Under the pieces are notes generated by a model, which was given only the letters and a program-made list of their open reading frames with translations, was not told the origin of the DNA and did not search any database. The position numbers and the translations under genes are program-made. Positions 7,073 through 21,200 of a DNA stretch of 64,000 nt are shown here, one piece after another (position 1 is the first letter of the stretch; each line of letters starts with the position of its first letter). The stretch is from an uncultured candidate division Zixibacteria bacterium (GTDB lineage Bacteria; Zixibacteria; MSB-5A5; GN15; FEB-12), in contig CAWDXE010000003.1 in assembly GCA_963806185.1 (NCBI GenBank), positions 96,001-160,000 of the forward strand, given 5' to 3'.

Positions 7073-8347
7073 ATGAAGAAACTCTTAATGATTGCGCTGG
7101 GGATCGTCCTGGCCATGAGCGTCGCCGCATTCGCGACCGACACACGAGTCCTCACTATGGGTGAGAACTACAATGTGCTTCTGGACGAATCCAACGTCTG
7201 GATGTACACTGGCCGCGTGTTCAACTATCCGAACCTGGCCACCGGTGAATTCTATCAGGACTACTACTATGATGACCCGTATGGCGACGGGTATCGCTAC
7301 GATTTCGGCCAATTTGGTATCAACTGGAAGTTCGGCGAAGCGAAGCCGTGGGTGCTGGGCACCTATTTCACTAATGGCAGCCCGGTTCTTCCGGGTTCCT
7401 ATTCTGGCGCTGGCCCGAATTATGTAGAATGGGACAGCGAGGGAGCACTTCCGGACAATCGTCGTATCAGCCTCCTGTACGGCCGCCAGTTCGGAACGTA
7501 CAACTTCGGTTTTGGTTTCGACTACACGTACAGCAGCTGGTCGGATGAAGCTTCGACCGACGCCACACTGGACTACAAGTATGACGAGAACTTCCGTTAC
7601 ATGATGTTCTCGCTCGGTCTGACCCCGGCCGCCGGCAATTGGGATCTGGCTGCGCACTTCGGTACCGGTACCTGGAAAGACGAAACCAGCTGGCATGACG
7701 ACGAAGCCGGTGCTGACTCTTTAAGGGTGGAAACCGAGCCGGATGGCTACATGGACTTTGCTTTGATGGGCCGCTATTTCAAGCAGCTTAACCCGACCGT
7801 CACGCTGGTCCCGCATGCGACCTTCGCGTTCGGCAAGCACGGTACCAAGAATCTGGCCGGCGAGAAGTACTCCAGTAAGATGACCATGATTGATTTCGGC
7901 GCCGGCATCAATTACACGCCGACGACCAACGTTCTGGCCGTGCTCGACCTGGGCTTCCAGATCAACACGGTAAAGGACGAGTTTACGCCGGGTCCGGATG
8001 GCGAAGTGACAGACGCGTATGAATACAAGTGGACCTACAACCACATGCCGTACTGGAAAATCGGTATGGAAGGCGAAGTCTGCAACTGGATGGACATCCG
8101 GTTGGGCGCCACTTCGTGGTGGGAAGGTTACAAGTCCGAGTACACTACGACCGGTTACGTCCGGACCTTCAAGGACAACGGCTCGTGGAACTACACGTAC
8201 CTTGGTGTCGGTCTAAACTTCGGCAAGTTCCATCTCGACACTTACACGGATCCGCAGATCATTCTCGACGGATTCAACTTCATGTCCGGCAGCGACGATG
8301 CGTGGGATCTGAACTTCCGCGTAAGCGCCCTGTACGAACTGATGTAA
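7073..8347 (+). CDS. Outer-membrane beta-barrel protein (probable major porin)
   Basis: Signal peptide ending AFA, alternating aromatic/Gly beta-strands, visibly biased codon usage (TTC, AAC, TAC, GGT/GGC), own strong terminator. Confidence 0.75.
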   Translation: MKKLLMIALGIVLAMSVAAFATDTRVLTMGENYNVLLDESNVWMYTGRVFNYPNLATGEFYQDYYYDDPYGDGYRYDFGQFGINWKFGEAKPWVLGTYFTNGSPVLPGSYSGAGPNYVEWDSEGALPDNRRISLLYGRQFGTYNFGFGFDYTYSSWSDEASTDATLDYKYDENFRYMMFSLGLTPAAGNWDLAAHFGTGTWKDETSWHDDEAGADSLRVETEPDGYMDFALMGRYFKQLNPTVTLVPHATFAFGKHGTKNLAGEKYSSKMTMIDFGAGINYTPTTNVLAVLDLGFQINTVKDEFTPGPDGEVTDAYEYKWTYNHMPYWKIGMEGEVCNWMDIRLGATSWWEGYKSEYTTTGYVRTFKDNGSWNYTYLGVGLNFGKFHLDTYTDPQIILDGFNFMSGSDDAWDLNFRVSALYELM

Positions 8348-8469: not shown

Positions 8470-8766
8470 ATGAATCCGCAATCGCTCAAGAGTTATCACG
8501 ATATCAGGAAACTCGTCTCCCCCGGGGCGTTTCGTTGTGCGACCAATTACATGGCCTGGCATAATCGACTGGCCATGACCGAAATGCTGGAGGTATGGGA
8601 GGGATTGGTAGTCGCACTCGCCTGCGAGCAGAAGCCCATTGACGAACTGCAGTATTCGTCAACCAAGTCGTTTCTCGATCAGAGTCGCAGCGATTCCCCC
8701 ACGACCATGCTCGAGTGCCAGATGCGCGCCGAGCTCTTGGCGCGGCACTTATCGACGGGCACATGA
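8470..8766 (+). CDS. Hypothetical protein (98 aa)
   Basis: Fills the gap between two terminators, with a promoter directly upstream. Confidence 0.55.
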   Translation: MNPQSLKSYHDIRKLVSPGAFRCATNYMAWHNRLAMTEMLEVWEGLVVALACEQKPIDELQYSSTKSFLDQSRSDSPTTMLECQMRAELLARHLSTGT

Positions 8767-8775
8767 CGACATACC

Positions 8776-8802
8776 AAAAAAGGCCGTCCAGGCGGACGGC
8801 CT
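8776..8802 (-). terminator. Rho-independent terminator of the GGDEF-like gene
   Basis: AGGCCGTCC/GGACGGCCT stem with an A6 tract on the plus strand (U-tract on minus). Confidence 0.8.
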
Positions 8803-8826
8803 CAAAACTCTTCCCGGACAGTTGAA

Positions 8827-9273
8827 TCAGTTGAGGTTACGGGCAGCCAATTCCATGAGGAATTCGCCAATGGTCCTGGTGCCGGCGGCGTCTGGATATG
8901 AGACCATTTCGAGCGGGATCAAGTCAACAGCCGGACTGCCAGTTTCCAGCTCAATTTGCTTGCGGATAAGCTCTGCGATTCGTCGACCGGCCACCTCCGC
9001 TCCCTGACGAGAGGTTTCGGGAAAGAGCAGACCGACCGTGCCTTCCTCCAGGTTCGCCACAAAATCACAGGCCCGGGTATGGGTACGGACGAGTTCAACG
9101 AAGCGGCGGACGGCAGCAGTATACCCCCCGTTATACTTCGTCTGCAAGCCGCGCAAATCCAGTACAACGATGGATACAAAAACGCGATAGCGCTCAGCCC
9201 GCTTAAGTTCGATTCCAGCTCGGGCGACAAACGAGGTGTCTATGACAGTCCCCTGCGATCCCGTGTGTGCCAT
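8827..9273 (-). CDS. Degenerate (catalytically inactive) GGDEF-domain protein
   Basis: ELKRAERYR..SIVVLDL, RACDFVANLEEGTVGLLFPET..GAEVAGRRI, VSYPD; EEGTV occupies the GGDEF position. Confidence 0.75.
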   Translation of the reverse strand: MAHTGSQGTVIDTSFVARAGIELKRAERYRVFVSIVVLDLRGLQTKYNGGYTAAVRRFVELVRTHTRACDFVANLEEGTVGLLFPETSRQGAEVAGRRIAELIRKQIELETGSPAVDLIPLEMVSYPDAAGTRTIGEFLMELAARNLN

Positions 9274-9329
9274 GCAACGTCAACCTTTCTGACCAATCCC
9301 TGGTCCCCGGATACTCTGTTGTCACTAGA

Positions 9330-9345
9330 AGCAATTCACGTTCCG
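9330..9345 (-). promoter_or_regulatory. Sigma-54 (-24/-12) promoter
   Basis: Minus strand CGGAACGTGAATTGCT = GG-N10-GC with TTGCT -12 box, about 57 nt upstream of ATG 9273. Confidence 0.65.
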
Positions 9346-9505
9346 GTTTAGCGCCAAGTTATTGTCCCGGAATAGTTTTCCTCAATTCCCGCGATTGTCT
9401 AACCAAATTTGAAGTTTAAAGCCATGTTATCAACATTAAAATGCTGGTGAGGCTCTCGTATGATTGATACGAAGATAATCGTGGAACGAACCAGTCGCAT
9501 ACGTC

Positions 9506-9522
9506 TGCGCAATAATTGCACA
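9506..9522. promoter_or_regulatory. Candidate enhancer (UAS) palindrome
   Basis: TGCGCAA-TAA-TTGCACA, about 160 bp upstream of the sigma-54 site. Confidence 0.4.
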
Positions 9523-9566
9523 GCTATGCGTGCATTCGCGTGCTTACTGGAGCACTTCCGAAATGG

Positions 9567-11015
9567 CTACTTCGTGACGTTCAGGTTGTAGTCTTTGATC
9601 TTGTACAGCAGAGACCGATAGCTGATCTGCAGAATGTCGGCAGCCTTGCGTCGGTTCCAGTTGGTCCGAGCGAGCACTTCGGCGATGAGACGTTTCTCCT
9701 CGCTTGCGATCGTCTTGCCCACTCGATTCTTAAGAGAAAGATCTCCGCCGGAAGCCTGTGCGCCGTCGTCATCGCCGATGCTGACCATCGCGGGCACATA
9801 CGCGCCAGTGGGGTCCATAGCGGTCGCAGGAGTGTATCTTGGGGTAGTGGACGCCGCTGTGATGAGCTCCCCGATAATGAGTTCGTCCCCGCGCACAACG
9901 ACCTGCTTAATCATGTTTTCGAGCTGCCGGACGTTGCCAGGCCAGTGGAAATTCATGAGTTTGCCTATCGTATCAGGACGAAGGGCAGCGGTTTCTTTTT
10001 CGTAGAGCTTGTTGTACTTAGCGATAAAATGCTCGACCAGGAGCGGGACGTCTTCCGGCCTCTGGCGTAACGGGGGCAGGAAGAGGGTAATTTCGTTTAG
10101 ACGATAAAACAGATCGTCGCGAAAACCGCCACTTTGAATTGCCTGCTCCAGATTCCGGTTGGTCGCGCAGATGATGCGGACGTCGACGTGGATCGTCTGG
10201 ATTCCACCGACCCGGACAAACTCTTGTTGTTCAAGAACTTGGAGGAGTTTCGACTGAAGTTCCATCGGCATGTCGCCGATTTCGTCGAGGAACATCGTTC
10301 CCTTGTTGGCGACCTCGAATCTCCCCTGTTTGTTCTTATGCGCGCCGGTGAAAGCACCCTTTTCGTAGCCGAACAACTCGGCCTCGAGAAGGTCGCGCGG
10401 GATAGCAGCGCAGTTCACTTTGACGAAAGGCTGAGCACTTCGAGTGGAAAGCTGGTGAAGCGACCGAGCGGCAATCTCCTTACCGGTTCCCGATTCGCCG
10501 CGAATCAGGACGGTGAGTTCCGAGTTGGCCACTTGTTCGATGATCGCTTTGACCCGACGCATCAACTCCGAGTCACCAATGAAGGCGCTGTAGTTATTTC
10601 GAATTTGAAGCTCGGATTTGAGTTCGGCGACTTCTTTTTTCAGGCGGGTGCGATCGAGCACACCATTGATGTGAATCTCAACTTCGCGAACATCAAAGGG
10701 TTTGTCGATGAATTCGGCAGCACCGAGACGCATGGACTCGACCACAAACTTGGTGTCACCATGACCGGAGATCATGATTACTTCCGGCCGACCTTCCATC
10801 TTATTAAGCTTTTCCAGCACTTCGAGTCCGGTCATCCCGGGCATTTTCACATCCAGCAGAATCAGATCGGGTTTTTCGGTGGAGACGAGCTGAATACCCT
10901 CAATACCGTCGCGTGCGGAGACAAATTCAAACGAGGAACTGAGTCCCTCGGAGAGAATCCAAGAGACCTTAGGATCGTCATCAATTACTAGAATCTTGGT
11001 TTTTTCTTTTGCCAT
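9567..11015 (-). CDS. Sigma-54-dependent response regulator (NtrC family: REC-AAA+-Fis HTH)
   Basis: REC (DDD, LLDVKMPG), GESGTGKE, GAFTGA, FLDEIG, WPGNVRQL, NRRKAA HTH; start placed at MAKEK. Confidence 0.95.
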   Translation of the reverse strand: MAKEKTKILVIDDDPKVSWILSEGLSSSFEFVSARDGIEGIQLVSTEKPDLILLDVKMPGMTGLEVLEKLNKMEGRPEVIMISGHGDTKFVVESMRLGAAEFIDKPFDVREVEIHINGVLDRTRLKKEVAELKSELQIRNNYSAFIGDSELMRRVKAIIEQVANSELTVLIRGESGTGKEIAARSLHQLSTRSAQPFVKVNCAAIPRDLLEAELFGYEKGAFTGAHKNKQGRFEVANKGTMFLDEIGDMPMELQSKLLQVLEQQEFVRVGGIQTIHVDVRIICATNRNLEQAIQSGGFRDDLFYRLNEITLFLPPLRQRPEDVPLLVEHFIAKYNKLYEKETAALRPDTIGKLMNFHWPGNVRQLENMIKQVVVRGDELIIGELITAASTTPRYTPATAMDPTGAYVPAMVSIGDDDGAQASGGDLSLKNRVGKTIASEEKRLIAEVLARTNWNRRKAADILQISYRSLLYKIKDYNLNVTK

Positions 11016-11156
11016 ACACCCGCCGATAATACCAGACAATGCTGAGAGATTTCACACAAAGTATCGGCAGTTGCACAGAGAAATCAAGTATAATATTTGT
11101 GCAAAGGGCGAACGGGTCGCAAAAGTGTGCATGGCAGAGAGAGGAGAATTGGCGAC

Positions 11157-13292
11157 TCAAGCGTGAATCGGAAGGTAGACAGTGAAGATAGTGCCTTTGC
11201 CTTCGACTGAAGTAACCTGCAGCGTGCCGGTGTGAGCGGAAATGATCCGTTCGACCACCACCAACCCCAGGCCCGTGCCAGTTTCCTTCGTAGTGTAGTA
11301 CCGCTCGAAAATGCGGGAGAGATCTTCCTTCTTGATGCCGCAACCGGTGTCGATCACCTTGACTGCCAGGTAATCCGTTTTCTTGTGCTCCGGGCGTTCG
11401 ATAAGTCCTTGGATGGTCAAGGTACCGCCATTGGGCATGGCATCAATGGCATTTAGACACAGGTTGAGAAAGACCTCAAGCAACTGGTTCTTGTTGGCAA
11501 TGACTTCCCAGTTGGTTTCAGCGAATTCACTGTGAAAGGCAATCTGGTGGCGGCGCAGTTCCGGGGCCACCAGTTCGGCGGCACGGCCGACGATAGTGCG
11601 CAGGTCGAGTTTTGACGTTTCGTATTTGTTCGGGTTGGAGAAGTCGACCAGTTCGCGCACAAGTTCGTTCATGCGGTGGATTTCTTCTTCCATGCTGGAG
11701 AAAAACTGGGAGCCACCCATCAAATCGGGGTGGCGCTCCTGAAGAATTTGTAATCCGCCTCGGATGGAGGTGAGAGGCTTTCGCAGGTCGTGAGAGATCT
11801 CAGATATCATGTTTCCCATGGTGATCAGGCGGGTGGCGTTGAGCATCGCCTTCTCCTTCTCGAACAAGAGAGCTGCCTGGGAGATCACCAGTTTGGCCAG
11901 CGAGAAGTCATCCTCCGAATAGGCGCGATCGAGGTCAGCCCCCAGGTAGTACAAGTACGCGAGTTCGCCGTTGCGCAGTACGGGAATTGCCATGAAGGCC
12001 TCTTTTGGCTTCGGGTAGTGCGGATTCTGAGCCAGCTTCTCTCCCATCAATAGCGACAGCTGGGTGATATCGTCGAGGTTGAAGGTAGACAGGTCCACCT
12101 CGGGGAAGGAGATGAAATGCCGGGGCATTTTGGCCAGGTTGATGCGGCCGCTGTCGGTCAACGGCAGGTCAGTTTGGCCGACCGCACCCTCGGGAACCAG
12201 TAGTTGATTGGCGGGGTCGTAGCTGAACCAGAAGGCGTAATCGATGGGGAAAATCCGCTTGAGCTTTGAGATCAGGGCCTGACGGAATTGGAGCAACGAA
12301 TCGAAAGTCGGCAGTTCGGAAGCGATCTCGTGCAGGATTTCGAATTCGACAAGTCGCCGGCGGGATTTTTCAAACTGCCAGGCATCATCCACGGCCACAG
12401 CCGCCTGCGAGGCAAAGGTGGTCAGCAGACGAAGGTCGTTACTGGTGAAAGCCCCTCCCTCCTGCTTGTTGGCCATATTGATGACACCGAGAATATCGTT
12501 TTTGATACGCAGGGGCGTGCACAAGAGAGAGGCGGCGCCGTACTTTTCGTTATTGATGCGCTTGAACCGCGGCTCATTCTCGACGTCGGCGACGATCATC
12601 GCCTCACCGGTTTTAGCGACGAATCCGGCGATGGAAGCACCGATGGGGAGGCGGGTCTTGCGAACCACATCATCGTCGAGACCAATGGCGGCTTCGATGG
12701 TAAGATACTGCTTTCGTTCGTCGAGCAGCATAATGGAACCGACCCGGGCCTCGGTGACGGCAGCGGCTAAGATGACAATCTGGCGAAGGAGTTCGCTGAG
12801 ATTGGCGGAGGAGCCGATGGACTTGCCGGCCTCGTAGAGAGCATTCAGTTCGCCGATTCGCCGCTGGAGTATCAGATTCGACAGTTTGAGTTCCTCGAGC
12901 AATGCCAGACGGGATAATTCGGCGCGCCGTTTTTCGAGGGCACGGCGGACTGACAGCTCCAGATAGGTGAACTCGACCGGTTTGAGCAGATAGTCGTACG
13001 CACCCTGGGCTATGGCGTCGAGGGCGGTATTGAGCGACGCGTAGCCGGTCATAAGAATGACCGGAATTCCCTCGTCGATCTCCTTTACGATCTTGAGAAT
13101 CTCTAGTCCGTCGAGGCCGGCCATCTTGATATCGGAAATGACCAGATCGATCTTTTCGCGTCGGATGGCTTCAACGGCGTCCTTGGGGGACTGAAAGCTG
13201 GACACGCGATACCCGTCGCCGTGGAGCAGAGCCTCCAAGGAGTCACACATTCGCTTTTCGTCGTCAATGACTATGATCTTCTCAGACGACAT
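11157..13292 (-). CDS. Cytoplasmic hybrid histidine kinase REC-GAF-(GAF-like)-HisKA-HATPase
   Basis: N-terminal REC, GAF (GASIAGFVAKTGE), H-box SHDLRKPL, N-box NAIDAM, DTGCGI, GTGLGL. Confidence 0.9.
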   Translation of the reverse strand: MSSEKIIVIDDEKRMCDSLEALLHGDGYRVSSFQSPKDAVEAIRREKIDLVISDIKMAGLDGLEILKIVKEIDEGIPVILMTGYASLNTALDAIAQGAYDYLLKPVEFTYLELSVRRALEKRRAELSRLALLEELKLSNLILQRRIGELNALYEAGKSIGSSANLSELLRQIVILAAAVTEARVGSIMLLDERKQYLTIEAAIGLDDDVVRKTRLPIGASIAGFVAKTGEAMIVADVENEPRFKRINNEKYGAASLLCTPLRIKNDILGVINMANKQEGGAFTSNDLRLLTTFASQAAVAVDDAWQFEKSRRRLVEFEILHEIASELPTFDSLLQFRQALISKLKRIFPIDYAFWFSYDPANQLLVPEGAVGQTDLPLTDSGRINLAKMPRHFISFPEVDLSTFNLDDITQLSLLMGEKLAQNPHYPKPKEAFMAIPVLRNGELAYLYYLGADLDRAYSEDDFSLAKLVISQAALLFEKEKAMLNATRLITMGNMISEISHDLRKPLTSIRGGLQILQERHPDLMGGSQFFSSMEEEIHRMNELVRELVDFSNPNKYETSKLDLRTIVGRAAELVAPELRRHQIAFHSEFAETNWEVIANKNQLLEVFLNLCLNAIDAMPNGGTLTIQGLIERPEHKKTDYLAVKVIDTGCGIKKEDLSRIFERYYTTKETGTGLGLVVVERIISAHTGTLQVTSVEGKGTIFTVYLPIHA

Positions 13293-14691
13293 GCTCGTCG
13301 GCTCCTTTGACTTCGCCCAGCGGGAGTCGGATGATGAAGCACCCCCCTTTGTCCAGGTTTCTGAATTCTATCGACCCATTATGTGCTTTTATTATGCCGT
13401 AGCATACGGAAAGTCCGAGCCCAGTGCCCTCGCCCGGTTCCTTGGTGGTGAAGAACGGTTCGAAAATGCGCGGAATGATCTCGGCCGGAATGCCGGGCCC
13501 GGAATCGCAGCAGCGGGTGACGACCTCGTGTTCAGACACGGTCGTGGTCACGGTAAGCTTGCCGCCCGTCTTCATAGCATCGCGAGCGTTGATGATCAGG
13601 TTGAGAAACACCTGCTTCAGGTTTTCCGACGAGCCTATGATGATCGGGTTCCGGGCGTCGAGGTGGGTTTCCACTTTGATGTCATGAGAAGCAAGCTGGC
13701 GGTCGACCAGACCGAGGACGTCGCTAATAACATGATTCAGATTCACCGGCTCAAGCGTGGCCTCGCCGGGGCGATGGAATTCGAGGAGTTGGCGGACGAT
13801 GCGGGCGATGCGGTCGATTTCATCACCGACGATGCCAAGGTACTTTTCGGACAGTTCGTGCCCGCCGGCCTCGCGTTTGGTAAGCAGGACGTAGTTCTTG
13901 ATGATGCCGAGCGGGTTGTTGACCTCATGGGCGATTTTGGCGGACATCTCCCCGAGGGCCGCGAGTTTCTCGGTCTGCAGCAGCAGTTGCTGTGCGGACC
14001 GGAGTTCCTGAGTGGCGCGCCGTTCGCCCTCGTATAGGCGGGCGTTTTCGATCGCAACGGCGATCTGGTTGCCGAGGATGGAAAGGAATTCGATATCGTC
14101 GTTGGTGAATGGAGCGTCGGACAGCTTGCCCGACATCAGAAAGACGCCCGACAGACGGGTCTGGTAAATGAGCGGCACGACGATTCCATTCGGGAACTGC
14201 AACAGCAAGGCACTTTCTTCGTCATCGGCAACCTCACGCAGAAGATCGTCCACCACCACCGGGCGATTGAGTTTTGCCAGGTATTGCATGAGGCGGGTTT
14301 CGAGAACGAAACAGGAGGTCGCGTGCGGCGGTTCGCCGGAGCCTTTGAACTTGGCCAGGTCGAAGCGATGGGAGGCGCTGTCGTGCTTGAGAAAGATAGC
14401 GCCTCGGGTGGCGGCTACTTGTCCCAGACAAGTGAAAATGAAAGTGTCCACCAGCATGTGGTAGTCGAGCACGGCATTGAAGTTGCGGCTGATCTCGAAG
14501 ACGGTGTAAAGGTCGAAGATCTTACGCTTGAGCTGGCGGTTGGCGTCACTCAGAAGCTGGAGCTTTTCTTCGAGCTGGCGACGGAGTGCAACGACCGATT
14601 CGGTACGAGGAATCCGCGGCTTGGACGCGGAATTTCGCGCAGCCCGGAGAGTCTTAGCGGTCGTCTTCTTTCGTTCGGCTTTCGGTTTCAT
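13282..14691 (-). CDS. Cytoplasmic GAF-sensor histidine kinase
   Basis: Coiled coil, GAF, AIENARLY, AHEVNNPL, NARDAM, DSGPGI, EPFFTTK, GTGLGL; ATG overlaps the folC stop (ATGA). Confidence 0.9.
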   Translation of the reverse strand: MKPKAERKKTTAKTLRAARNSASKPRIPRTESVVALRRQLEEKLQLLSDANRQLKRKIFDLYTVFEISRNFNAVLDYHMLVDTFIFTCLGQVAATRGAIFLKHDSASHRFDLAKFKGSGEPPHATSCFVLETRLMQYLAKLNRPVVVDDLLREVADDEESALLLQFPNGIVVPLIYQTRLSGVFLMSGKLSDAPFTNDDIEFLSILGNQIAVAIENARLYEGERRATQELRSAQQLLLQTEKLAALGEMSAKIAHEVNNPLGIIKNYVLLTKREAGGHELSEKYLGIVGDEIDRIARIVRQLLEFHRPGEATLEPVNLNHVISDVLGLVDRQLASHDIKVETHLDARNPIIIGSSENLKQVFLNLIINARDAMKTGGKLTVTTTVSEHEVVTRCCDSGPGIPAEIIPRIFEPFFTTKEPGEGTGLGLSVCYGIIKAHNGSIEFRNLDKGGCFIIRLPLGEVKGADEHVV

Positions 14692-15964
14692 TTCCAAACG
14701 TATGATTCAAGGAATTCGCCGACCAAGTAGTGTGAGCCTATCACTGGTAGTATATCGTCCGGGCCGAGCGATTTCAACAGCTTCCGATAGGCGGCGCCGA
14801 GCGAGGCGGCCCCAGTGACGGGGACACCATGCCAATGAGTGGTGGCAATGACCTCGCTGGGCTCGACAGACCGCTTGGTTTTCATGCGAACAAGGGTGTA
14901 ACTTGCGGCAATTGGCGCCAGGGCATCAAACATTTCCTGGTGCTGCTTCTTCTTTACCACGCCGACGATCAGGGGGACTTTTCGTCCCGGATATTTGAGC
15001 CTAAAGCTCTCGGTGAAGGCGCGCGCGCCGCCCTGATTGTGGCAGACGTCGAGGAGCAGTGTGGGACCTTGCTTCACGTTTATTATCTGAAAACGGCCGG
15101 GCCAATCAGTGGACTTTAGACCTGTACATACGGCCCGATCGGGCACGCGCAGACCGAGCGACTTGCACAGCGAGAGTGTTTTGAGGGCCAGAGCCGTGTT
15201 GACCAACTGGTGGCGGCCGATCAGAGCGGGTGAGAGTCTCTTTACCGACAGATTTCCGGATGAGAAATCGAGCGCGAACTGCTCGGGGTACGTTTTGAAT
15301 TGTCTGCGCGAGAGACGATGCAGCGGCGCTTGGCGCGCCTTGCACGTTTGGCGCATAACTCTCTCCGCGTCACCGGGCAACAGGCCGATCAGGTGCGGCA
15401 CCCCAGGCTTGATGATACCGGCCTTCTCCGTGGCGATTTTGGTGAGTGTATCGCCCAGAATGTCGACATGATCAAAACTAATGTCAGTGCAGACTGTGAG
15501 GAGCGGCGTGAGGACGTTGGTAGCGTCGAGTCTCCCCCCCAGGCCCACCTCGATGATGGCAATCTCCACACCCTGACGGGCGAAATGATCGAAGGCGAGG
15601 GCGGTGACTACTTCAAAAAAGGTGACTTTTTTTTTACCAGTATCGTGCGATACCGGTCGACAAAACGAGCAACTGATAGTCGGGGAATCTTCTGGCCGTT
15701 GACCTTGATTCGCTCCCGGAAATCAACCAAGTGAGGAGAGGTATACAATCCGGTCTTGTAGCCGGCGGCGCGAAGGACTGACTCGATCATGGCGGAAGTG
15801 GACCCTTTGCCATTGGTGCCGGAAATATGGATAGCGGCGAAGCGGCGCTGGGGTGCGCCCATCGAATCGAGGAACTGGGCAATATTATCCAGTCCCAGTT
15901 TCATGCCGAAGAACTCGCGCGACAAGAGGAAGTGCTCCGCGCGCTTGTAGGTGTGGCGGCGCAC
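14688..15964 (-). CDS. folC: Folylpolyglutamate synthase/dihydrofolate synthase, frame broken at an A9 run (15627-15635)
   Basis: HISGTNGKGST and YTSPHL in one frame; EVGLGGRLDAT and WPGRFQ in the next; one extra A restores KKKVTFFEVVTALAF; GGAGG-N5-GTG start. Confidence 0.9.
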
Positions 15965-16806
15965 TATGACCTCCACGTGTACCGCAACAGGCGGGCAATG
16001 GTCTCGCGCAGGTCCTTGCGTTCGACAATTTTGTCGAGGAATCCTTTGTCGATGAAAAATTCGGAAGACTGGAAGCCCTCGGGAAGTTCCTGACCGATGG
16101 TTTGCTGGATGACGCGCGGTCCGGCGAAGCCCAGGAGTGCTTTCGGTTCCGCGATGATGACATCACCAAGCGAGGCGTAGGAGGCCATGACGCCGGCGGT
16201 GGTCGGGTTGGTCAGGACCGAGACATACGGAATCTTGCGTTCCGCAAGGATGGCGAGCAGGCCGGAGGTTTTGGCCATCTGCATCAGGGAGAGAATGCCC
16301 TCCTGCATGCGGGCGCCGCCCGAACAGGAGACGATGACGAGAGGGCAGCGGTGTTGAATAGCGCGCTCAATAGTCCGGGCCACTTTTTCGCCCACTACTG
16401 AGCCCATGGAGCCGCCGATAAACGCAAAATCCATGATGCAGAAGGAGACGGCGATGCCATCGATTTTGCCAAGTCCGGTGATCAGGCCCTCGGTGCCATC
16501 CGATTTCTCATTGGCCGCTTTGAGTCGGTCGGGATACCGCTTGGAGTCTTTGAATTTGAGCGGGTCGCCGGAACGAAGGGTGTTATCGAATTCGTCGATA
16601 TGACCGTCGTCAAGAATGATATCTATGTACTTCCGGCTGGAGATGCGGAAGTGGTAATTGCAGCTTGGGCAAACCCAGAGCAGGTCTTCCAGTTTCTTGG
16701 TGTAGATAATTTCTCCACAGGAAGAGCACTTGGTCCACAGCCCTTCGGGGATGTTCTTCTTCTCTTGTGACTGGAGGCCGGTCTTGGCCTTGCGAAACCA
16801 TTCCAT
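15964..16806 (-). CDS. accD: Acetyl-CoA carboxylase carboxyltransferase beta subunit
   Basis: Zn finger CSSC/CPSC, GGSMGSVVGEK, SGGARMQEG, GFAGPRVI. Confidence 0.97.
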   Translation of the reverse strand: MEWFRKAKTGLQSQEKKNIPEGLWTKCSSCGEIIYTKKLEDLLWVCPSCNYHFRISSRKYIDIILDDGHIDEFDNTLRSGDPLKFKDSKRYPDRLKAANEKSDGTEGLITGLGKIDGIAVSFCIMDFAFIGGSMGSVVGEKVARTIERAIQHRCPLVIVSCSGGARMQEGILSLMQMAKTSGLLAILAERKIPYVSVLTNPTTAGVMASYASLGDVIIAEPKALLGFAGPRVIQQTIGQELPEGFQSSEFFIDKGFLDKIVERKDLRETIARLLRYTWRS

Positions 16807-18371: not shown

Positions 18372-19928
18372 TTACCTGGGAGTCAGGACGGCTACGGGCA
18401 CGACCATTTCTTCGAGCGAAATGCCGCCGTGTTGGAAGGAATTCTGAAAGAGGCGGACCATCTCATTGTAATTGTTCGGATAGACGAAATAGAAGTCTTC
18501 CTTGGCCAGAATATAGGTAGTGCTGATGGTGAAGCTGGGCAAGCGGTACTGCTCGGGTTTCTTGATGAGCACCGACTCTTTGGCGTTGGAGTTGAGATTG
18601 TCACCGTACTTATAGCGCAGATTGGTCGACGTGTCGCGCCGGCCGTGGGCCATCGTACCCCGCTTGCAGAGCACGGAGCCGTGATCAGACGTGACCACGA
18701 CGGTAAAGCCTTTGGTCGCGAATGATTTCAGAATCGCATAGAGCGGCGAATGAATAAACCAACTGCGCATCAGGGAACGGAAGGCGGCTTCAGTGCCGGC
18801 GATTTCCTTGAGGATGACATTGTTGGACCGACCGTGCGCCAGGATGTCGAGGAAATTGAATACGAGGGTGACCAGATTGTACTGATAAAGATCGGCAACT
18901 TTCTTGGCGAGCTCGTCCCCCTCGGTATTGTTGTAAATCTTGATGTACTTCTGCCGATCGAGGCGCACGCCGTTACGGGCCAGATTGTCATTCAGCAGGC
19001 GGTCTTCATACTTGTTTAGCGAGCCTTCGTCGGGTGAACTGTAATTGTCCGGGTATATCTTGTGAATCTCATCGGGGAATAGCCCGGCGAAGAGAGCGTT
19101 GCGCGCGAAGGGGGTCGCGGTAGGCAACATCGAGTAGTAGTAGTGTCGATCGACGTTGTACAGTTCGGCGATCAGGGGCTCGACCAGCATCCACTGATCC
19201 AGACGCATGCAGTCGACGACAATGTAGAGAACTTTCTTCTGCGCCTTGAGCGGTGGTACGACGAATGTTTTCGTAACGTCAGGGGAAAGCAAGGGACGGT
19301 TGGCGGAGGTCAGCCAGGAACGGTACTGGGAGTCGATGTACTTGGTAAACTCGGTATTCCACTCCTTCATCGTCCCTTCGTGGGTATGCTGCAGGCCGGT
19401 GTCGTTGCTATGATCGAGTTCCAGGTTCCACTCAGCGACGAGTCGGGCGGCCTCGTGCCAGTCCTCCGGCTCCATTGCACCGTAGAGGCGCTGATTGAAA
19501 CGATTAATTTCAGTGATATAGCGACGCATTGACGACGATTCGATGATCTTTCGCGAATCAAGCAGACGTTTGATGACGAGGAGGATTTGGGAAGGGATCA
19601 CCGGTTTCACGAGGTAATCGTCGATTTTCTGGCCGATCGCCTCCTCCATCAGGGTCTCTTCCTCCGACTTGGTGACCATGACTACCGGGAGATGCGGCCG
19701 GATGTTCTTGATTTCTTCGAGCGTGGTAAGACCGTCTTTGCCGGGCATCTTCTCGTCGAGTAGAGCCAGGTCGAAGATCTGCTTGCGGACGGCTTCGATG
19801 GCATCGTCGCCGGACATCACACCGGTGACTTCGAACCCCTTACCTTCGAGAAAGAGGATATGCGGTTTGAGGGAATCGATCTCGTCGTCGACCCAGAGAA
19901 TTCGTTTCTTATCAGCAGCAGTAGCCAT
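18372..19928 (-). CDS. porX: PorX-type response regulator with PglZ/alkaline-phosphatase domain
   Basis: ILWVDDEI..LKPHILFLE, TKSEEE, DCMRLDQW, LPTATPFARNALF, TSDHG, TSTNLRYK, FQHGGISLEE; upstream of tsaE. Confidence 0.9.
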   Translation of the reverse strand: MATAADKKRILWVDDEIDSLKPHILFLEGKGFEVTGVMSGDDAIEAVRKQIFDLALLDEKMPGKDGLTTLEEIKNIRPHLPVVMVTKSEEETLMEEAIGQKIDDYLVKPVIPSQILLVIKRLLDSRKIIESSSMRRYITEINRFNQRLYGAMEPEDWHEAARLVAEWNLELDHSNDTGLQHTHEGTMKEWNTEFTKYIDSQYRSWLTSANRPLLSPDVTKTFVVPPLKAQKKVLYIVVDCMRLDQWMLVEPLIAELYNVDRHYYYSMLPTATPFARNALFAGLFPDEIHKIYPDNYSSPDEGSLNKYEDRLLNDNLARNGVRLDRQKYIKIYNNTEGDELAKKVADLYQYNLVTLVFNFLDILAHGRSNNVILKEIAGTEAAFRSLMRSWFIHSPLYAILKSFATKGFTVVVTSDHGSVLCKRGTMAHGRRDTSTNLRYKYGDNLNSNAKESVLIKKPEQYRLPSFTISTTYILAKEDFYFVYPNNYNEMVRLFQNSFQHGGISLEEMVVPVAVLTPR

Positions 19929-19937
19929 GCAGGTAGA

Positions 19938-21200
19938 TTACTTTCCTCCGCCGATGGGCAGCAGAATGTGAAAGACCGTTTCGCCCGGGCCGGAGCGGAC
20001 AAGTCGTATGCGCCCGTTGTGATATTCTTCGACGATGCGACGGACCAGAGTGAGGCCAAGTCCCCAGCCACGCTTCTTGGTGGTGAAGCCGGGGCGGAAT
20101 ATCTTGCGGGCCGCGGCGACCGTGATTCCGACGCCGTTGTCGGCTATCTCGATCAGTACATTGCGTCGATCCGGAGCGACGCTGGTGGTCAAGGTGACTT
20201 GCCCCGTTTTCGAATCGACAGCCTGCAGGGCATTTTTGACCAGATTTTCCAGTGACCAGCCGAGCAGTTCGGTGTTCAGTCGAACCGGCGGGATATCACC
20301 GGCCGTGCAGGTCAGTTGAATGCCTTTGCCTTCAAACGGGAGCCGTCGTCGGTAATATTCAACAACTTCCTGGACCACACGGTTCACGTCGCTTTCCTTA
20401 AGTTCGGGGACGGATCCGATAAGTCCGAAGCGATTGGCCACGCGCTGGAGGCGATCGACGTCGATCGACATATTCTCGGCAGTCGTAACCAGTAATTTTT
20501 CTTCGTCAGCGGCTTCGAGGTCGGCGCGATGAGCGGGACCGATGACCTCGAGCCACCCCATGAGCGAAGATATGGGTGTACCGAGCTGGTGGGCTGTCTC
20601 TTTGGCCATACCGACCCAGATGAGTCGCTCTTCACTTCGACGGATATTCTGGAAGCCGATCAGGCCGATAGTCATGAAGGCAAGGACAACGCCGATTTCG
20701 ACAAACGGCATCCACTGCAATTGACGCACGACCGGGGGATTGCCGTAGTAGAGGTAGTTGGCAAAGGTCTCAGCGTAATAGATGGGGTACTCGCCGTTGT
20801 CGTGTTTCATCTCCTTTACCAATGCCTGCAATTTCAAGAGCGTGCCGGGCAACGTGTCAGTCGGAGATTCAGGTATACCCTCAATGTTCCGCCAATGCGC
20901 CGGGTCGCCGTGATCGTCGGTGACAATAATCGGGAAGGTCGCCTTGACGATGATCTCGTCGAAGATGAATTGCAGTTCAATACCGGATGTCGGCGCGTTG
21001 GCGGCGTACTGCCAGAGGCGCACATAGGTTTCGACTTGGCTGCGCGTGACGGATTTCAGGCGCTCGATTACGTCGAAAGTATACCAGACGAAGAGCGCAG
21101 AGACGATGACCATTCCTCCCAGTAGGAAGAACTTGAAGATCGTCGACTTGCCAACGTACAGGTCGGACGTGCTGTTGATGATTCGCCAATTGCGGGGCAT
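19938..21200 (-). CDS. Membrane sensor histidine kinase
   Basis: Two TM segments, WVGMAKETAHQLGTP, ENLVKNA, DNGVGI, PGFTTKKRGWGLGL. Confidence 0.92.
   Translation of the reverse strand: MPRNWRIINSTSDLYVGKSTIFKFFLLGGMVIVSALFVWYTFDVIERLKSVTRSQVETYVRLWQYAANAPTSGIELQFIFDEIIVKATFPIIVTDDHGDPAHWRNIEGIPESPTDTLPGTLLKLQALVKEMKHDNGEYPIYYAETFANYLYYGNPPVVRQLQWMPFVEIGVVLAFMTIGLIGFQNIRRSEERLIWVGMAKETAHQLGTPISSLMGWLEVIGPAHRADLEAADEEKLLVTTAENMSIDVDRLQRVANRFGLIGSVPELKESDVNRVVQEVVEYYRRRLPFEGKGIQLTCTAGDIPPVRLNTELLGWSLENLVKNALQAVDSKTGQVTLTTSVAPDRRNVLIEIADNGVGITVAAARKIFRPGFTTKKRGWGLGLTLVRRIVEEYHNGRIRLVRSGPGETVFHILLPIGGGK

Follow-up and report, generated by a model that had tools for sequence, protein, structure and literature searches.

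Organization of the locus

The window is a 64,000-nucleotide stretch of DNA from a Zixibacteria genome. The locus under study lies on its minus strand and comprises two histidine kinases (HK1 and HK2), an NtrC-type activator, and a small GGDEF-fold protein.

14688..16806, minus strand: accD and folC, context only; folC is split at an A run
13282..14697, minus strand: HK1, soluble coiled-coil-GAF histidine kinase, ATG at 14691, H-box AHEVNNPLG (Pfam domains)
11157..13292, minus strand: HK2, soluble REC-GAF-GAF histidine kinase of 711 aa, SHDLRKPLT (Pfam domains)
9567..11039, minus strand: NtrC-type activator, REC-AAA+-HTH with GAFTGA, likely start near 11015 (Pfam domains)
8827..9273, minus strand: stand-alone GGDEF-fold protein of 148 aa, RACD-FVANL-EEGTV, both I-site halves kept, catalytic motif lost (dead GGDEF)
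8780..8803, minus strand: intrinsic-terminator-like hairpin after the dead-GGDEF gene, 10-pair stem with T tail, consensus match only

The sequence-only reading had described two kinases, an NtrC activator, and a 148-aa ORF, and all four ORFs lie on the minus strand where it had placed them. The order kinase, kinase, NtrC, dead GGDEF is found in 20 of 20 fetched loci. The H-boxes read AHEVNNPL in HK1 and SHDL[RK][KR]PL in HK2. The genomes compared are kin, so that neither locus nor homologue counts are independent. The four-gene arrangement is real and nearly phylum-wide in Zixibacteria, and a description of this system was not found in the open literature searched. The kinases had been called soluble, which fits their hydropathy maxima of 1.4 and 1.9, below the 2.6-3.1 of two membrane cyclases. 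Two GAF domains had been assigned to HK2; GAF_2 matches two stretches, but Pfam GAF finds only one. The hairpin at 8780-8803 agrees with the proposed terminator of the dead-GGDEF gene. The suggested attachment to the accD-folC operon is incidental. The module adjoins folC in 15/20 loci, and in 5/20 it stands apart from folC with its gene order unchanged. The split in folC is probably an assembly error.

A GGDEF fold that lost catalysis and kept the I-site

The 148-aa protein alone has no Pfam match. Among 120 homologues, 69 match GGDEF (PF00990) at E<=0.01, and the family profile finds the cyclase 3ign with an E-value of 2.6e-12. The AlphaFold model (pLDDT 83.9) has the WspR GGDEF domain as its best Foldseek match (E 6.6e-05, TM 0.60). 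The protein is a member of the GGDEF fold. A GGDEF-like motif at the catalytic position is found in 0/120 homologues and in 0/60 orthologues from distinct genomes. The first substrate-binding Asp is kept in 119/120 homologues, the second position is Asp in 7/120, and the profile alignment shows four residues deleted around the substrate helix. An active diguanylate cyclase is ruled out by the absent GG(D/E)EF motif and the mostly lost second Asp.

The same alignments bear out the description of a dead GGDEF domain with an intact I-site. RxxD lies five residues before the motif position in 120/120, 60/60, and 80/80 sequences, and R25, R28, R67, D70, and R98 are invariant in all 120 homologues and all 60 orthologues from distinct genomes. 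R25, R28, and R98 are further I-site arginines, present as in degenerate GGDEF receptors of c-di-GMP; in known I-sites such arginines are WspR R198 and PleD R313 and R390. Inferred from where the profile match to WspR (3bre) begins and ends, the counterparts of R28, R67, and D70 are WspR R198, R242, and D245, which a pair of GGDEF domains requires for holding c-di-GMP between them (excerpts of PMC2270323).

A homodimer modelled with four c-di-GMP molecules scored 0.70, compared with 0.01 for the best of three controls, the runs agreeing in 100% of contacts with a pLDDT of 85. The score mark is reached by 20/30 solved homodimers and 1/23 single chains, a ligand-free calibration set, and it covers the protein chains and leaves the ligand unscored. 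The modelled interface is made of residues 21-22, 24-25, 28-29, 67-69, and 85-86, and pairs 25/28 with 67-69; nearly all invariant residues belong to this predicted dimer/ligand face. An I-site-to-I-site dimer is thus predicted, and the high score may reflect memorized structures, as the model resembles the solved cross-linked dimers of PleD and WspR. Like the model, those dimers join a primary RxxD to an arginine from a second GGDEF domain; they serve feedback inhibition inside an active enzyme, whereas the 148-aa protein has neither active site nor stalk (excerpts of PMC2270323).

That the protein binds c-di-GMP, a messenger of biofilm formation, is highly probable from these residues, and the earlier proposal of a c-di-GMP receptor or sponge appears likely. 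The arginines could instead be kept to bind a different ligand, such as cGAMP or a nucleotide resembling pppGpp, or to form a dimer free of ligand: on its own RxxD suggests binding and requires a test (excerpts of PMC10333796), and the dimer score is silent on the ligand. We consider this very improbable, given that the five residues correspond to those of established I-sites, one cyclase is co-regulated, and the genome holds two intact cyclases, HD-domain phosphodiesterase candidates, and PilZ proteins.

Dead GGDEF receptors have so far been known as domains of larger proteins. PelD (TM-GAF-dGGDEF) and PopA (REC-REC-dGGDEF) share with the 148-aa protein the fold, the lost motif, and an RxxD five residues before it, but the latter is one bare domain (excerpts of PMC10333796). 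It further differs from both in having its own predicted sigma-54 promoter and in keeping the second cross-linking arginine set. Only 7/120 homologues match the PelD_GGDEF model (best E 8e-05), and PelD itself is ruled out, as the protein is a single soluble domain with no pel genes among its labelled neighbours.

Predicted promoter and enhancer of the dead-GGDEF gene

Four elements were located in the spacer between ntrC and the dead-GGDEF gene.

9330..9345, minus strand: predicted sigma-54 -24/-12 box, GG-N10-GC, same position in 30/30 and 80/80 loci
9369..9381, minus strand: GGAAA-n-TTCC inverted element, roughly 25-35 bp upstream of the -24 box
9422..9440, minus strand: weak IHF-like stretch, two mismatches in this genome
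9496..9522, minus strand: predicted enhancer TGTGCA-N5-TGnGCA-N6-TGCA, some 180 bp upstream of the -24 box

The -24/-12 element had been noticed before; the 30-locus and 80-locus (GTDB) sets in which it keeps its place overlap. Conservation of both the box and RxxD exceeds chance. With GG-N10-GC at a conserved position, rpoN present in the genome, and an upstream enhancer, the gene is very probably preceded by a sigma-54 promoter. None of the computable refuting conditions named with the sequence-only reading holds: rpoN is there, and both GG-N10-GC and RxxD are conserved. The spacer, described as AT-rich, is so only mildly at this locus (GC 0.48). The GGAAA-n-TTCC element recurs as a loose pattern in 22/29 spacers, a count without shuffle control, and the IHF-like stretch occurs within one mismatch in 14/29 spacers against 6.5 expected from shuffles.

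The enhancer is absent from the sequence-only reading. It scores at least 10 bits in 64/79 loci, with an enhancer-to-box spacing of about 150-215 bp. The matrix was trained only on dead-GGDEF gene promoters, and with this genome left out of training, its dead-GGDEF promoter ranks top of 218 sigma-54 candidates. At the same threshold the enhancer precedes the sigma-54 box of a cyclase-Wza operon in 15/17 loci, that of a priming glycosyltransferase in 24/30, and, more weakly, that of a kinase pair in 7/21, compared with 6/390 background boxes. These three and the dead-GGDEF promoter take the first four places among the 218 candidates in this genome. Against a shared enhancer there, a search of 5/5 distant-family loci found no enhancer-box pair before the cyclase operon. 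Catalytic motif and RxxD are both retained in 24/24 copies of the operon's cyclase (22 GGDEF/GGEEF, one AGDEF, and one GGDEL). It is hence highly likely, judging from promoter sequences, that the dead GGDEF, cyclase/Wza, and the priming glycosyltransferase form one regulon under a shared enhancer and sigma-54. The relay had been thought self-contained, which fails because the enhancer and box recur before these other operons.

The activator reading the enhancer

The adjacent activator is of NtrC type, REC-AAA+(GAFTGA)-HTH with the phospho-acceptor Asp. It falls below the curated cut-offs for NtrC proper (424 vs 558.6 bits), AtoC (433 vs 714 bits), and PrsR (388.8 vs 502.6 bits). It lies next to the dead-GGDEF gene in 20/20 loci and within 700 bp in 76/78, and its recognition helix SYRSLLYK is unchanged in 39/39 syntenic copies. 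We regard it as probably the activator of the enhancer promoters.

The enhancer may, with distinctly lower probability, be read by another activator, chiefly an NtrC-like one encoded behind the priming glycosyltransferase, the relay then controlling something else. This alternative concerns the input only and leaves protein and regulon the same.

G000 C3:175873-177393: rival NtrC-like activator behind the priming glycosyltransferase, helix SRNTLRDR

By its C-terminus the rival is found in 154/160 genomes, in or beside the glycosyltransferase operon in 4/5 genomes viewed, and it scores best against the NtrC model TIGR01818. The enhancer core, G-N13-C, resembles NtrC and Fis sites, which counts in its favor. 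Six activators, five of them other than the adjacent NtrC, are common to all 8 genomes compared, so that a phylogenetic profile cannot single out the neighbor. G101 and G117 lack both the rival and a significant enhancer at the dead-GGDEF and glycosyltransferase promoters, as the rival reading predicts. Against it, the full-length rival was not found in f6 (0/3), f12 (0/4), G101, or G117, yet among the genomes in which it was not found, G062 and G111 keep enhancer (12.6 and 10.8 bits, with 0 of 200 shuffles as high), box, and dead-GGDEF gene, and G101 and G103 still have enhancer promoters in front of genes for secreted proteins (23.2 and 12.8 bits).

Role of the dead GGDEF protein

In our best explanation, the two soluble GAF kinases would phosphorylate the adjacent activator, perhaps in the order HK1, HK2 receiver, HK2, NtrC. 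NtrC with sigma-54 would then switch on, via the shared enhancer, the cyclase, polysaccharide export genes, the glycosyltransferase, and the dead GGDEF protein, two copies of which likely hold c-di-GMP clamped between them. The clamp would buffer the c-di-GMP made by its own programme, with a threshold or damping of the rise as net effect. Sequence comparison shows how the genes are ordered, that the box is present, that three promoters share the enhancer, and that the cyclase's motifs and the I-site of the 148-aa protein are intact. Because that switch is also found upstream of polysaccharide genes and of a cyclase predicted to work, the programme buffered is likely that of surface polysaccharide. 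The whole, a relay-driven sigma-54 polysaccharide/c-di-GMP regulon that co-induces its own clamp, we put at slightly short of an even chance, and buffering as the protein's main role deserves the same tentative standing.

A point against this explanation is that the protein is dispensable: no copy of its gene was found behind ntrC in G019, G085, G037, G040, and G075, all of which keep HK2, NtrC, rpoN, and cyclases. Such genomes also bear on a different role, in which c-di-GMP bridges the dead I-site in trans to that of the co-regulated cyclase and caps the enzyme, either inhibiting it or relieving product inhibition by competing with its own cross-link. Both proteins keep RA.RY and RxxD and share the enhancer, and tandem intact-plus-dead GGDEF fusions exist (P0159 and P0160). 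Capping is nevertheless unlikely: genomes without the gene keep intact cyclases, and a dimeric cyclase would cross-link to itself at high local concentration.

The protein could also be a c-di-GMP-sensing subunit that acts in feedback on HK1, HK2, or NtrC, much as a free-standing SgmT GGDEF domain might. In 5/13 further loci and in G086 it follows ntrC without box or enhancer, hence staying beside ntrC even after its own promoter is gone, and family f2 lacks both HK1 and the dead-GGDEF gene at the locus. The loci without box or enhancer also weigh against the best explanation. SgmT reportedly signals to DigR, a regulator of a type other than sigma-54. SgmT/DigR of Myxococcus resembles the module in pairing a GAF kinase with a dead I-site GGDEF in matrix control, the one protein joining GAF, kinase, receiver, and dead GGDEF and governing matrix genes, whereas here the dead domain is separate and the predicted output transcriptional (excerpts of PMC3509222). 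Such feedback seems improbable to us, because SgmT phosphotransfer is unchanged by c-di-GMP (same excerpts), the invariant residues are nearly all on the predicted dimer/ligand face, and, in a weak test on few lineages, no NtrC, HK1, or HK2 domain is less conserved in 3-5 gene-less genomes than in held-out families. An SgmT-type fusion is ruled out, the dead GGDEF being a separate ORF in 20/20 loci, and no kinase fusion was seen among the top family hits of a representative search.

Co-regulation with polysaccharide genes would also suit a PelD-like effector acting on the priming glycosyltransferase, a Wzc kinase, or export. P0200 and three relatives, one named Desulfobacula, combine a dead GGDEF with a sugar transferase in a single protein, and in G019 the dead-GGDEF gene, wza, and the enhancer of the two polysaccharide promoters are all missing. 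Such fusions are uncommon (4 proteins), and they lie apart from the 148-aa family in the tree, on long branches; G037 holds wza though its dead-GGDEF gene is missing, and the glycosyltransferase's own arginine-rich insert may bind the ligand directly. There is little to recommend this role over buffering.

We further propose, still more tentatively than buffering, a phylum-wide sigma-54 circuit in which the one two-kinase relay turns on the cyclase, the start and export of polysaccharide, and the stand-alone clamp together. The clamp, acting in trans, would be product inhibition moved out of the enzyme into a gene under its own control, and would set a threshold for the cyclase or act back on the relay. 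If true, a bare, phylum-kept domain with both half-sites and an enhancer-dependent promoter would be a natural c-di-GMP clamp. At 148 aa it is small, soluble, and directly testable, and it opens to testing the idea that a sink co-expressed with a cyclase shapes second-messenger timing. For Zixibacteria, known here from metagenome bins, the shared enhancer likewise defines a specific surface-polysaccharide regulon that can be put to the test.

Comparison with other polysaccharide regulons

A sigma-54 activator of polysaccharide genes is under kinase control, as proposed here, in the Vibrio fischeri SypF/SypG/SypE/SypA system, which also has a partner-switch pair below transcription (excerpts of PMC12369376), and in Myxococcus EpsI/Nla24, where EpsI itself binds c-di-GMP downstream of a cyclase, whereas the cyclase is a predicted target here (excerpts of PMC4877007). 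The excerpted accounts of both mention no stand-alone dead GGDEF (PMC12369376, PMC4877007). The PrsK/PrsR PEP-CTERM regulon likewise has a sigma-54 box and enhancer before surface-protein genes and shares a link to XrtA-type polysaccharide genes, seen here in a deacetylase that passes TIGR03006, but its kinase PrsK is membrane-bound and its enhancer and box lie 63 bp apart on average (excerpts of PMC1569441), compared with soluble kinases and about 150-215 bp here; true PrsK/PrsR occur separately in G087. Partner-switch cyclases (SiaABCD, BgrR, and HsbD) resemble the target operon, not the four-gene module (excerpts of PMC8457831). In that operon, genes for a kinase/phosphatase fusion, a STAS protein, and the cyclase follow one another.

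Conservation of the two-kinase module

By the names of its closest homologues, the window belongs to a Zixibacteria bin. The module occupies the minus strand of the window and consists of the following features.

13282-14697, minus strand: soluble GAF kinase (HK1)
11157-13292, minus strand: soluble REC-GAF-GAF kinase (HK2)
9567-11039, minus strand: NtrC-type activator
9496-9522, minus strand: predicted enhancer, from the spacer alignment
9330-9345, minus strand: -24/-12 element (the box)
8827-9273, minus strand: 148-aa ORF (the small gene)
8780-8803, minus strand: terminator-like hairpin after the 148-aa ORF

The genome containing the window (G000) encodes RpoN and about twenty sigma-54 activators, which agrees with the sigma-54 output proposed in the sequence-only reading. 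Its c-di-GMP-related set comprises two intact cyclases, a third, shorter GGDEF protein, three HD_5 proteins, and two PilZ proteins; an EAL domain was looked for in the 82%-complete genome without success. Rfam models at the gathering threshold detected nothing in the window or in the cyclase operon described below, and hence no known c-di-GMP riboswitch in either.

A single-query search with the small protein gave matches in 54 of 61 related genomes, some weak ones being cyclases. The order kinase-kinase-NtrC-small gene is kept in all 20 loci fetched around good matches, which were thereby selected for carrying the gene; they represent nine families, four have one extra gene inserted, and folC adjoins the module in 15. 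The position of the box is constant in 30/30 close loci and 80/80 GTDB loci, two overlapping sets, and ntrC lies less than 700 bp away in 76 of the 78 GTDB loci long enough for the test. Synteny and promoter, whose conservation the earlier reading had proposed to check, are thus conserved in these loci. At locus level, the small gene was not found downstream of ntrC in G019, G085, G037, G040, and G075. Another 24 loci anchored on ntrC include 13 with the small gene, five of them without box or enhancer, and 11 without it, two of which ended early. We conclude that the module is real, old, and conserved, and that it is a variant built from known parts.

In family f2 (L121, in G037), the module lacks HK1 and the operon cyclase is ~200 aa shorter.

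Fold and predicted ligand of the small protein

Pfam and NCBIfam assign no family to the 148-aa protein itself. Its AlphaFold model has a confident GGDEF-type fold (pLDDT 83.9), and the best solved structural match is the GGDEF domain of WspR. The GGDEF motif had been described as destroyed; indeed, no GGDEF-like motif occurs in any of 120 homologues or 60 orthologues. Arg25, Arg28, Arg67, Asp70, and Arg98 are invariant in all 120 homologues and in all 60 orthologues, each from a distinct genome, so the RxxD motif (Arg67/Asp70) noticed earlier is conserved. The profile match to WspR pairs positions 11-105 with residues 181-280 of the chain. Judged from the end points of this match only, Arg28, Arg67, and Asp70 would correspond to WspR Arg198, Arg242, and Asp245, residues reported to clasp a dimer of intercalated c-di-GMP where two GGDEF domains meet; binding is abolished by R198A or R242A (PMC2270323). 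By this correspondence the small protein would keep both halves of the cross-link, beyond what the earlier reading saw.

We modeled a homodimer with four c-di-GMP molecules. The score was 0.70, compared with 0.01 for the best control. In the calibration, 20/30 solved homodimers and 1/23 single chains attained the mark on this score. All contacts agree among three runs (pLDDT 85), and the interface is formed by residues 21-22, 24-25, 28-29, 67-69, and 85-86. As similar dimers have already been solved, the model reflects likeness rather than binding. In the tree, the family is tied to neither genomic cyclase; its side has a support of 84/84, unstarred, and takes in four unplaced proteins.

When metagenomes were scanned with a stand-alone but distant relative, one short weak locus came up. 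The ESM Atlas contains a 50-member cluster of 138-aa look-alikes, commonest in Aminicenantota, and similar stand-alone proteins may therefore exist outside Zixibacteria. Among the proteins compared, P0200 and P0271-P0273 (one named Desulfobacula) have two dead I-site GGDEF domains joined to a sugar transferase, and P0159, P0160, P0165, and P0184 (one named Eremiobacteraeota) have such a domain in tandem behind an intact cyclase.

A predicted enhancer common to cyclase and polysaccharide promoters

Alignment of the spacers revealed a second conserved element, TGTGCA-N5-TGnGCA-N6-TGCA, located ~180 bp upstream of the box. The enhancer matrix was trained on small-gene promoters only, using 28 of 30 rows (L018 and one weak row were dropped), or 27 after G000 was left out. 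The matrix trained without G000 was applied to the 218 sigma-54 candidates of that genome. Its top four comprise the small gene and the promoters at C7:716555 (two-kinase operon), C7:500937 (a further operon), and C3:181837 (priming glycosyltransferase). The enhancer copies at the latter two lie near C7:500728 and C3:182030. The genes behind two of these promoters are:

G000 C7:500995-515050: conserved cyclase/Wza operon (L102)
G000 C3:180828-181763: priming glycosyltransferase (L154; copies L155-L184)

An enhancer of at least 10 bits precedes the cyclase-operon box in 15/17 loci, which represent three families (L115 and L121, which have no box, are left out), the glycosyltransferase box in 24/30 loci from eleven families, and the kinase pair in 7/21 loci (four short or boxless loci excluded), against a background of 6/390 boxes. 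The cyclase-operon loci of G019 and G037 have no box, and both genomes also lack the small gene; in five distant-family loci no enhancer-box pair precedes the operon. Because enhancer and box also precede the cyclase operon and the glycosyltransferase, the module is not self-contained, contrary to the original proposal. Judged by promoter sequence, the small gene belongs, as one of several outputs, to a predicted regulon for polysaccharide and c-di-GMP.

Genes for a large secreted protein, a PorV-family protein, a kinase/SpoIIE fusion, a STAS protein, a membrane cyclase (C7:508702-510342), Wza, a TPR protein, a tyrosine autokinase, and an XrtA-type deacetylase make up the C7 operon. Their order is nearly constant across 24 loci, and the catalytic and I-site motifs of the cyclase are intact in 24/24 copies. 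The operon looks like a partner-switch cyclase, a known kind (PMC8457831), coupled to polysaccharide export. In 29 of 30 copies, the glycosyltransferase contains an insert rich in arginine (NRRxxDRR...RRxxDRR). This insert is close to the c-di-GMP peptide reported for CleD, DRR-x11-(R/K)RxxD (PMC7382256), and nine of 30 copies fit DRR-x7-12-(R/K)RxxD; the enzyme may itself bind c-di-GMP.

With a looser pattern in 40 genomes, high-scoring sites also precede large secreted proteins in several lineages. Loci L406, L415, L416, L417, L418, L420, and L424 have such a site and a sigma-54 box ahead of these proteins, and their lineages lack the small gene or the NtrC-like activator beside the glycosyltransferase. 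In a separate pattern search, several matches located within genes were set aside as chance. Separately, a GGAAA-n-TTTCC element lies directly upstream of the -24 box (window 9369-9381) in 22 of 29 spacers, and similar stretches occur at the cyclase-operon promoter.

Candidate activators of the enhancer

Six sigma-54 activators are common to all eight genomes compared. The recognition helix of the adjacent NtrC-type protein is identical in 39/39 copies, and the enhancer usually lies directly downstream of its stop codon, which makes this protein the natural candidate. The enhancer could instead be read by a seventh activator with an NtrC-like helix, which is near-universal and has no adjacent kinase:

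G000 C3:175873-177393: NtrC-like activator beside the priming glycosyltransferase (L348)

A search with its C-terminus found this protein in 154 of 160 genomes, and G101 and G117, where no full-length copy was found, lack the enhancer at two of the main promoters. No full-length copy was found in families f6 and f12 either, yet G062 and G111 retain enhancer, box, and gene, and G101 and G103 retain enhancer promoters elsewhere. On balance, the adjacent NtrC-type protein is probably the one that reads the enhancer. The best match in f12 to the C-terminus of the glycosyltransferase-linked activator is a stand-alone HTH frame of ~100 aa.

PrsR was set aside, as no copy occurs among the G000 activators, and the PrsK/PrsR pair is missing from the glycosyltransferase locus of this genome. 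PrsK/PrsR-like pairs do lie by the glycosyltransferase in three distant families (L349 in G087, L350 in G116, and L351 in G135), two of these loci having an exosortase; the G087 copies exceed the family cut-offs. A plasmid search with NtrC gave generic relatives only, below 40% identity.

Proposed mechanism

A cytoplasmic signal would be sensed by the GAF domains of the kinases. HK1 would likely phosphorylate the receiver domain of HK2, and HK2 would in turn likely phosphorylate the activator, an order suggested by the domain layout and by the absence of HK1 from the f2 locus. The activator would then jointly induce the cyclase, the polysaccharide genes, and the small protein, which would bind c-di-GMP as a dimer and so damp or delay its rise. 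Since nearly all invariant residues lie on the predicted ligand/dimer face, such binding is the simplest role. Alternatively, the small protein may act in trans on the cyclase or serve the polysaccharide machinery. It might also feed back on the relay, but conservation of NtrC, HK1, and HK2 is no looser in genomes of three lineages without the gene. A REC-GAF-HD protein (C5:33879-35519), whose N-terminus resembles HK2 (24% over 302 aa), is by sequence a possible second phosphotransfer target. A short GGDEF protein bearing GHIAGDDF is encoded at C4:424847-425641.

Degenerate GGDEF receptors with RxxD are established, including PelD and PopA (PMC10333796) and SgmT (PMC3509222), and so are activators that control polysaccharide loci through sigma-54, such as SypG (PMC12369376), EpsI/Nla24 (PMC4877007), and PrsR (PMC1569441). 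The open literature searched, at title and abstract level and mostly without subscription papers, gave no publication on Zixibacteria and GGDEF, no account of a stand-alone degenerate GGDEF with sigma-54, and no description of this arrangement under c-di-GMP sinks or Zixibacteria sigma-54 or biofilm. The new elements are the predicted stand-alone clamp and the regulon common to cyclase and polysaccharide genes.

Surroundings of the module

A 98-aa ORF without Pfam or NCBIfam match (8470-8766, plus strand) converges with the small gene, and G028 has a 43%-identical copy at the equivalent place. A secreted, outer-membrane-like protein of 424 aa is encoded at 7073-8347, with a terminator of its own; the sole match, to OprF, is weak. 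folC is interrupted at an A run (15569-15608), probably by an assembly error; further G000 genes are split likewise. At 18372-21200, a REC-PglZ response regulator and a membrane kinase, presumably PorX/PorY-like, adjoin tsaE-tsaB-rimI and are kept in many loci.
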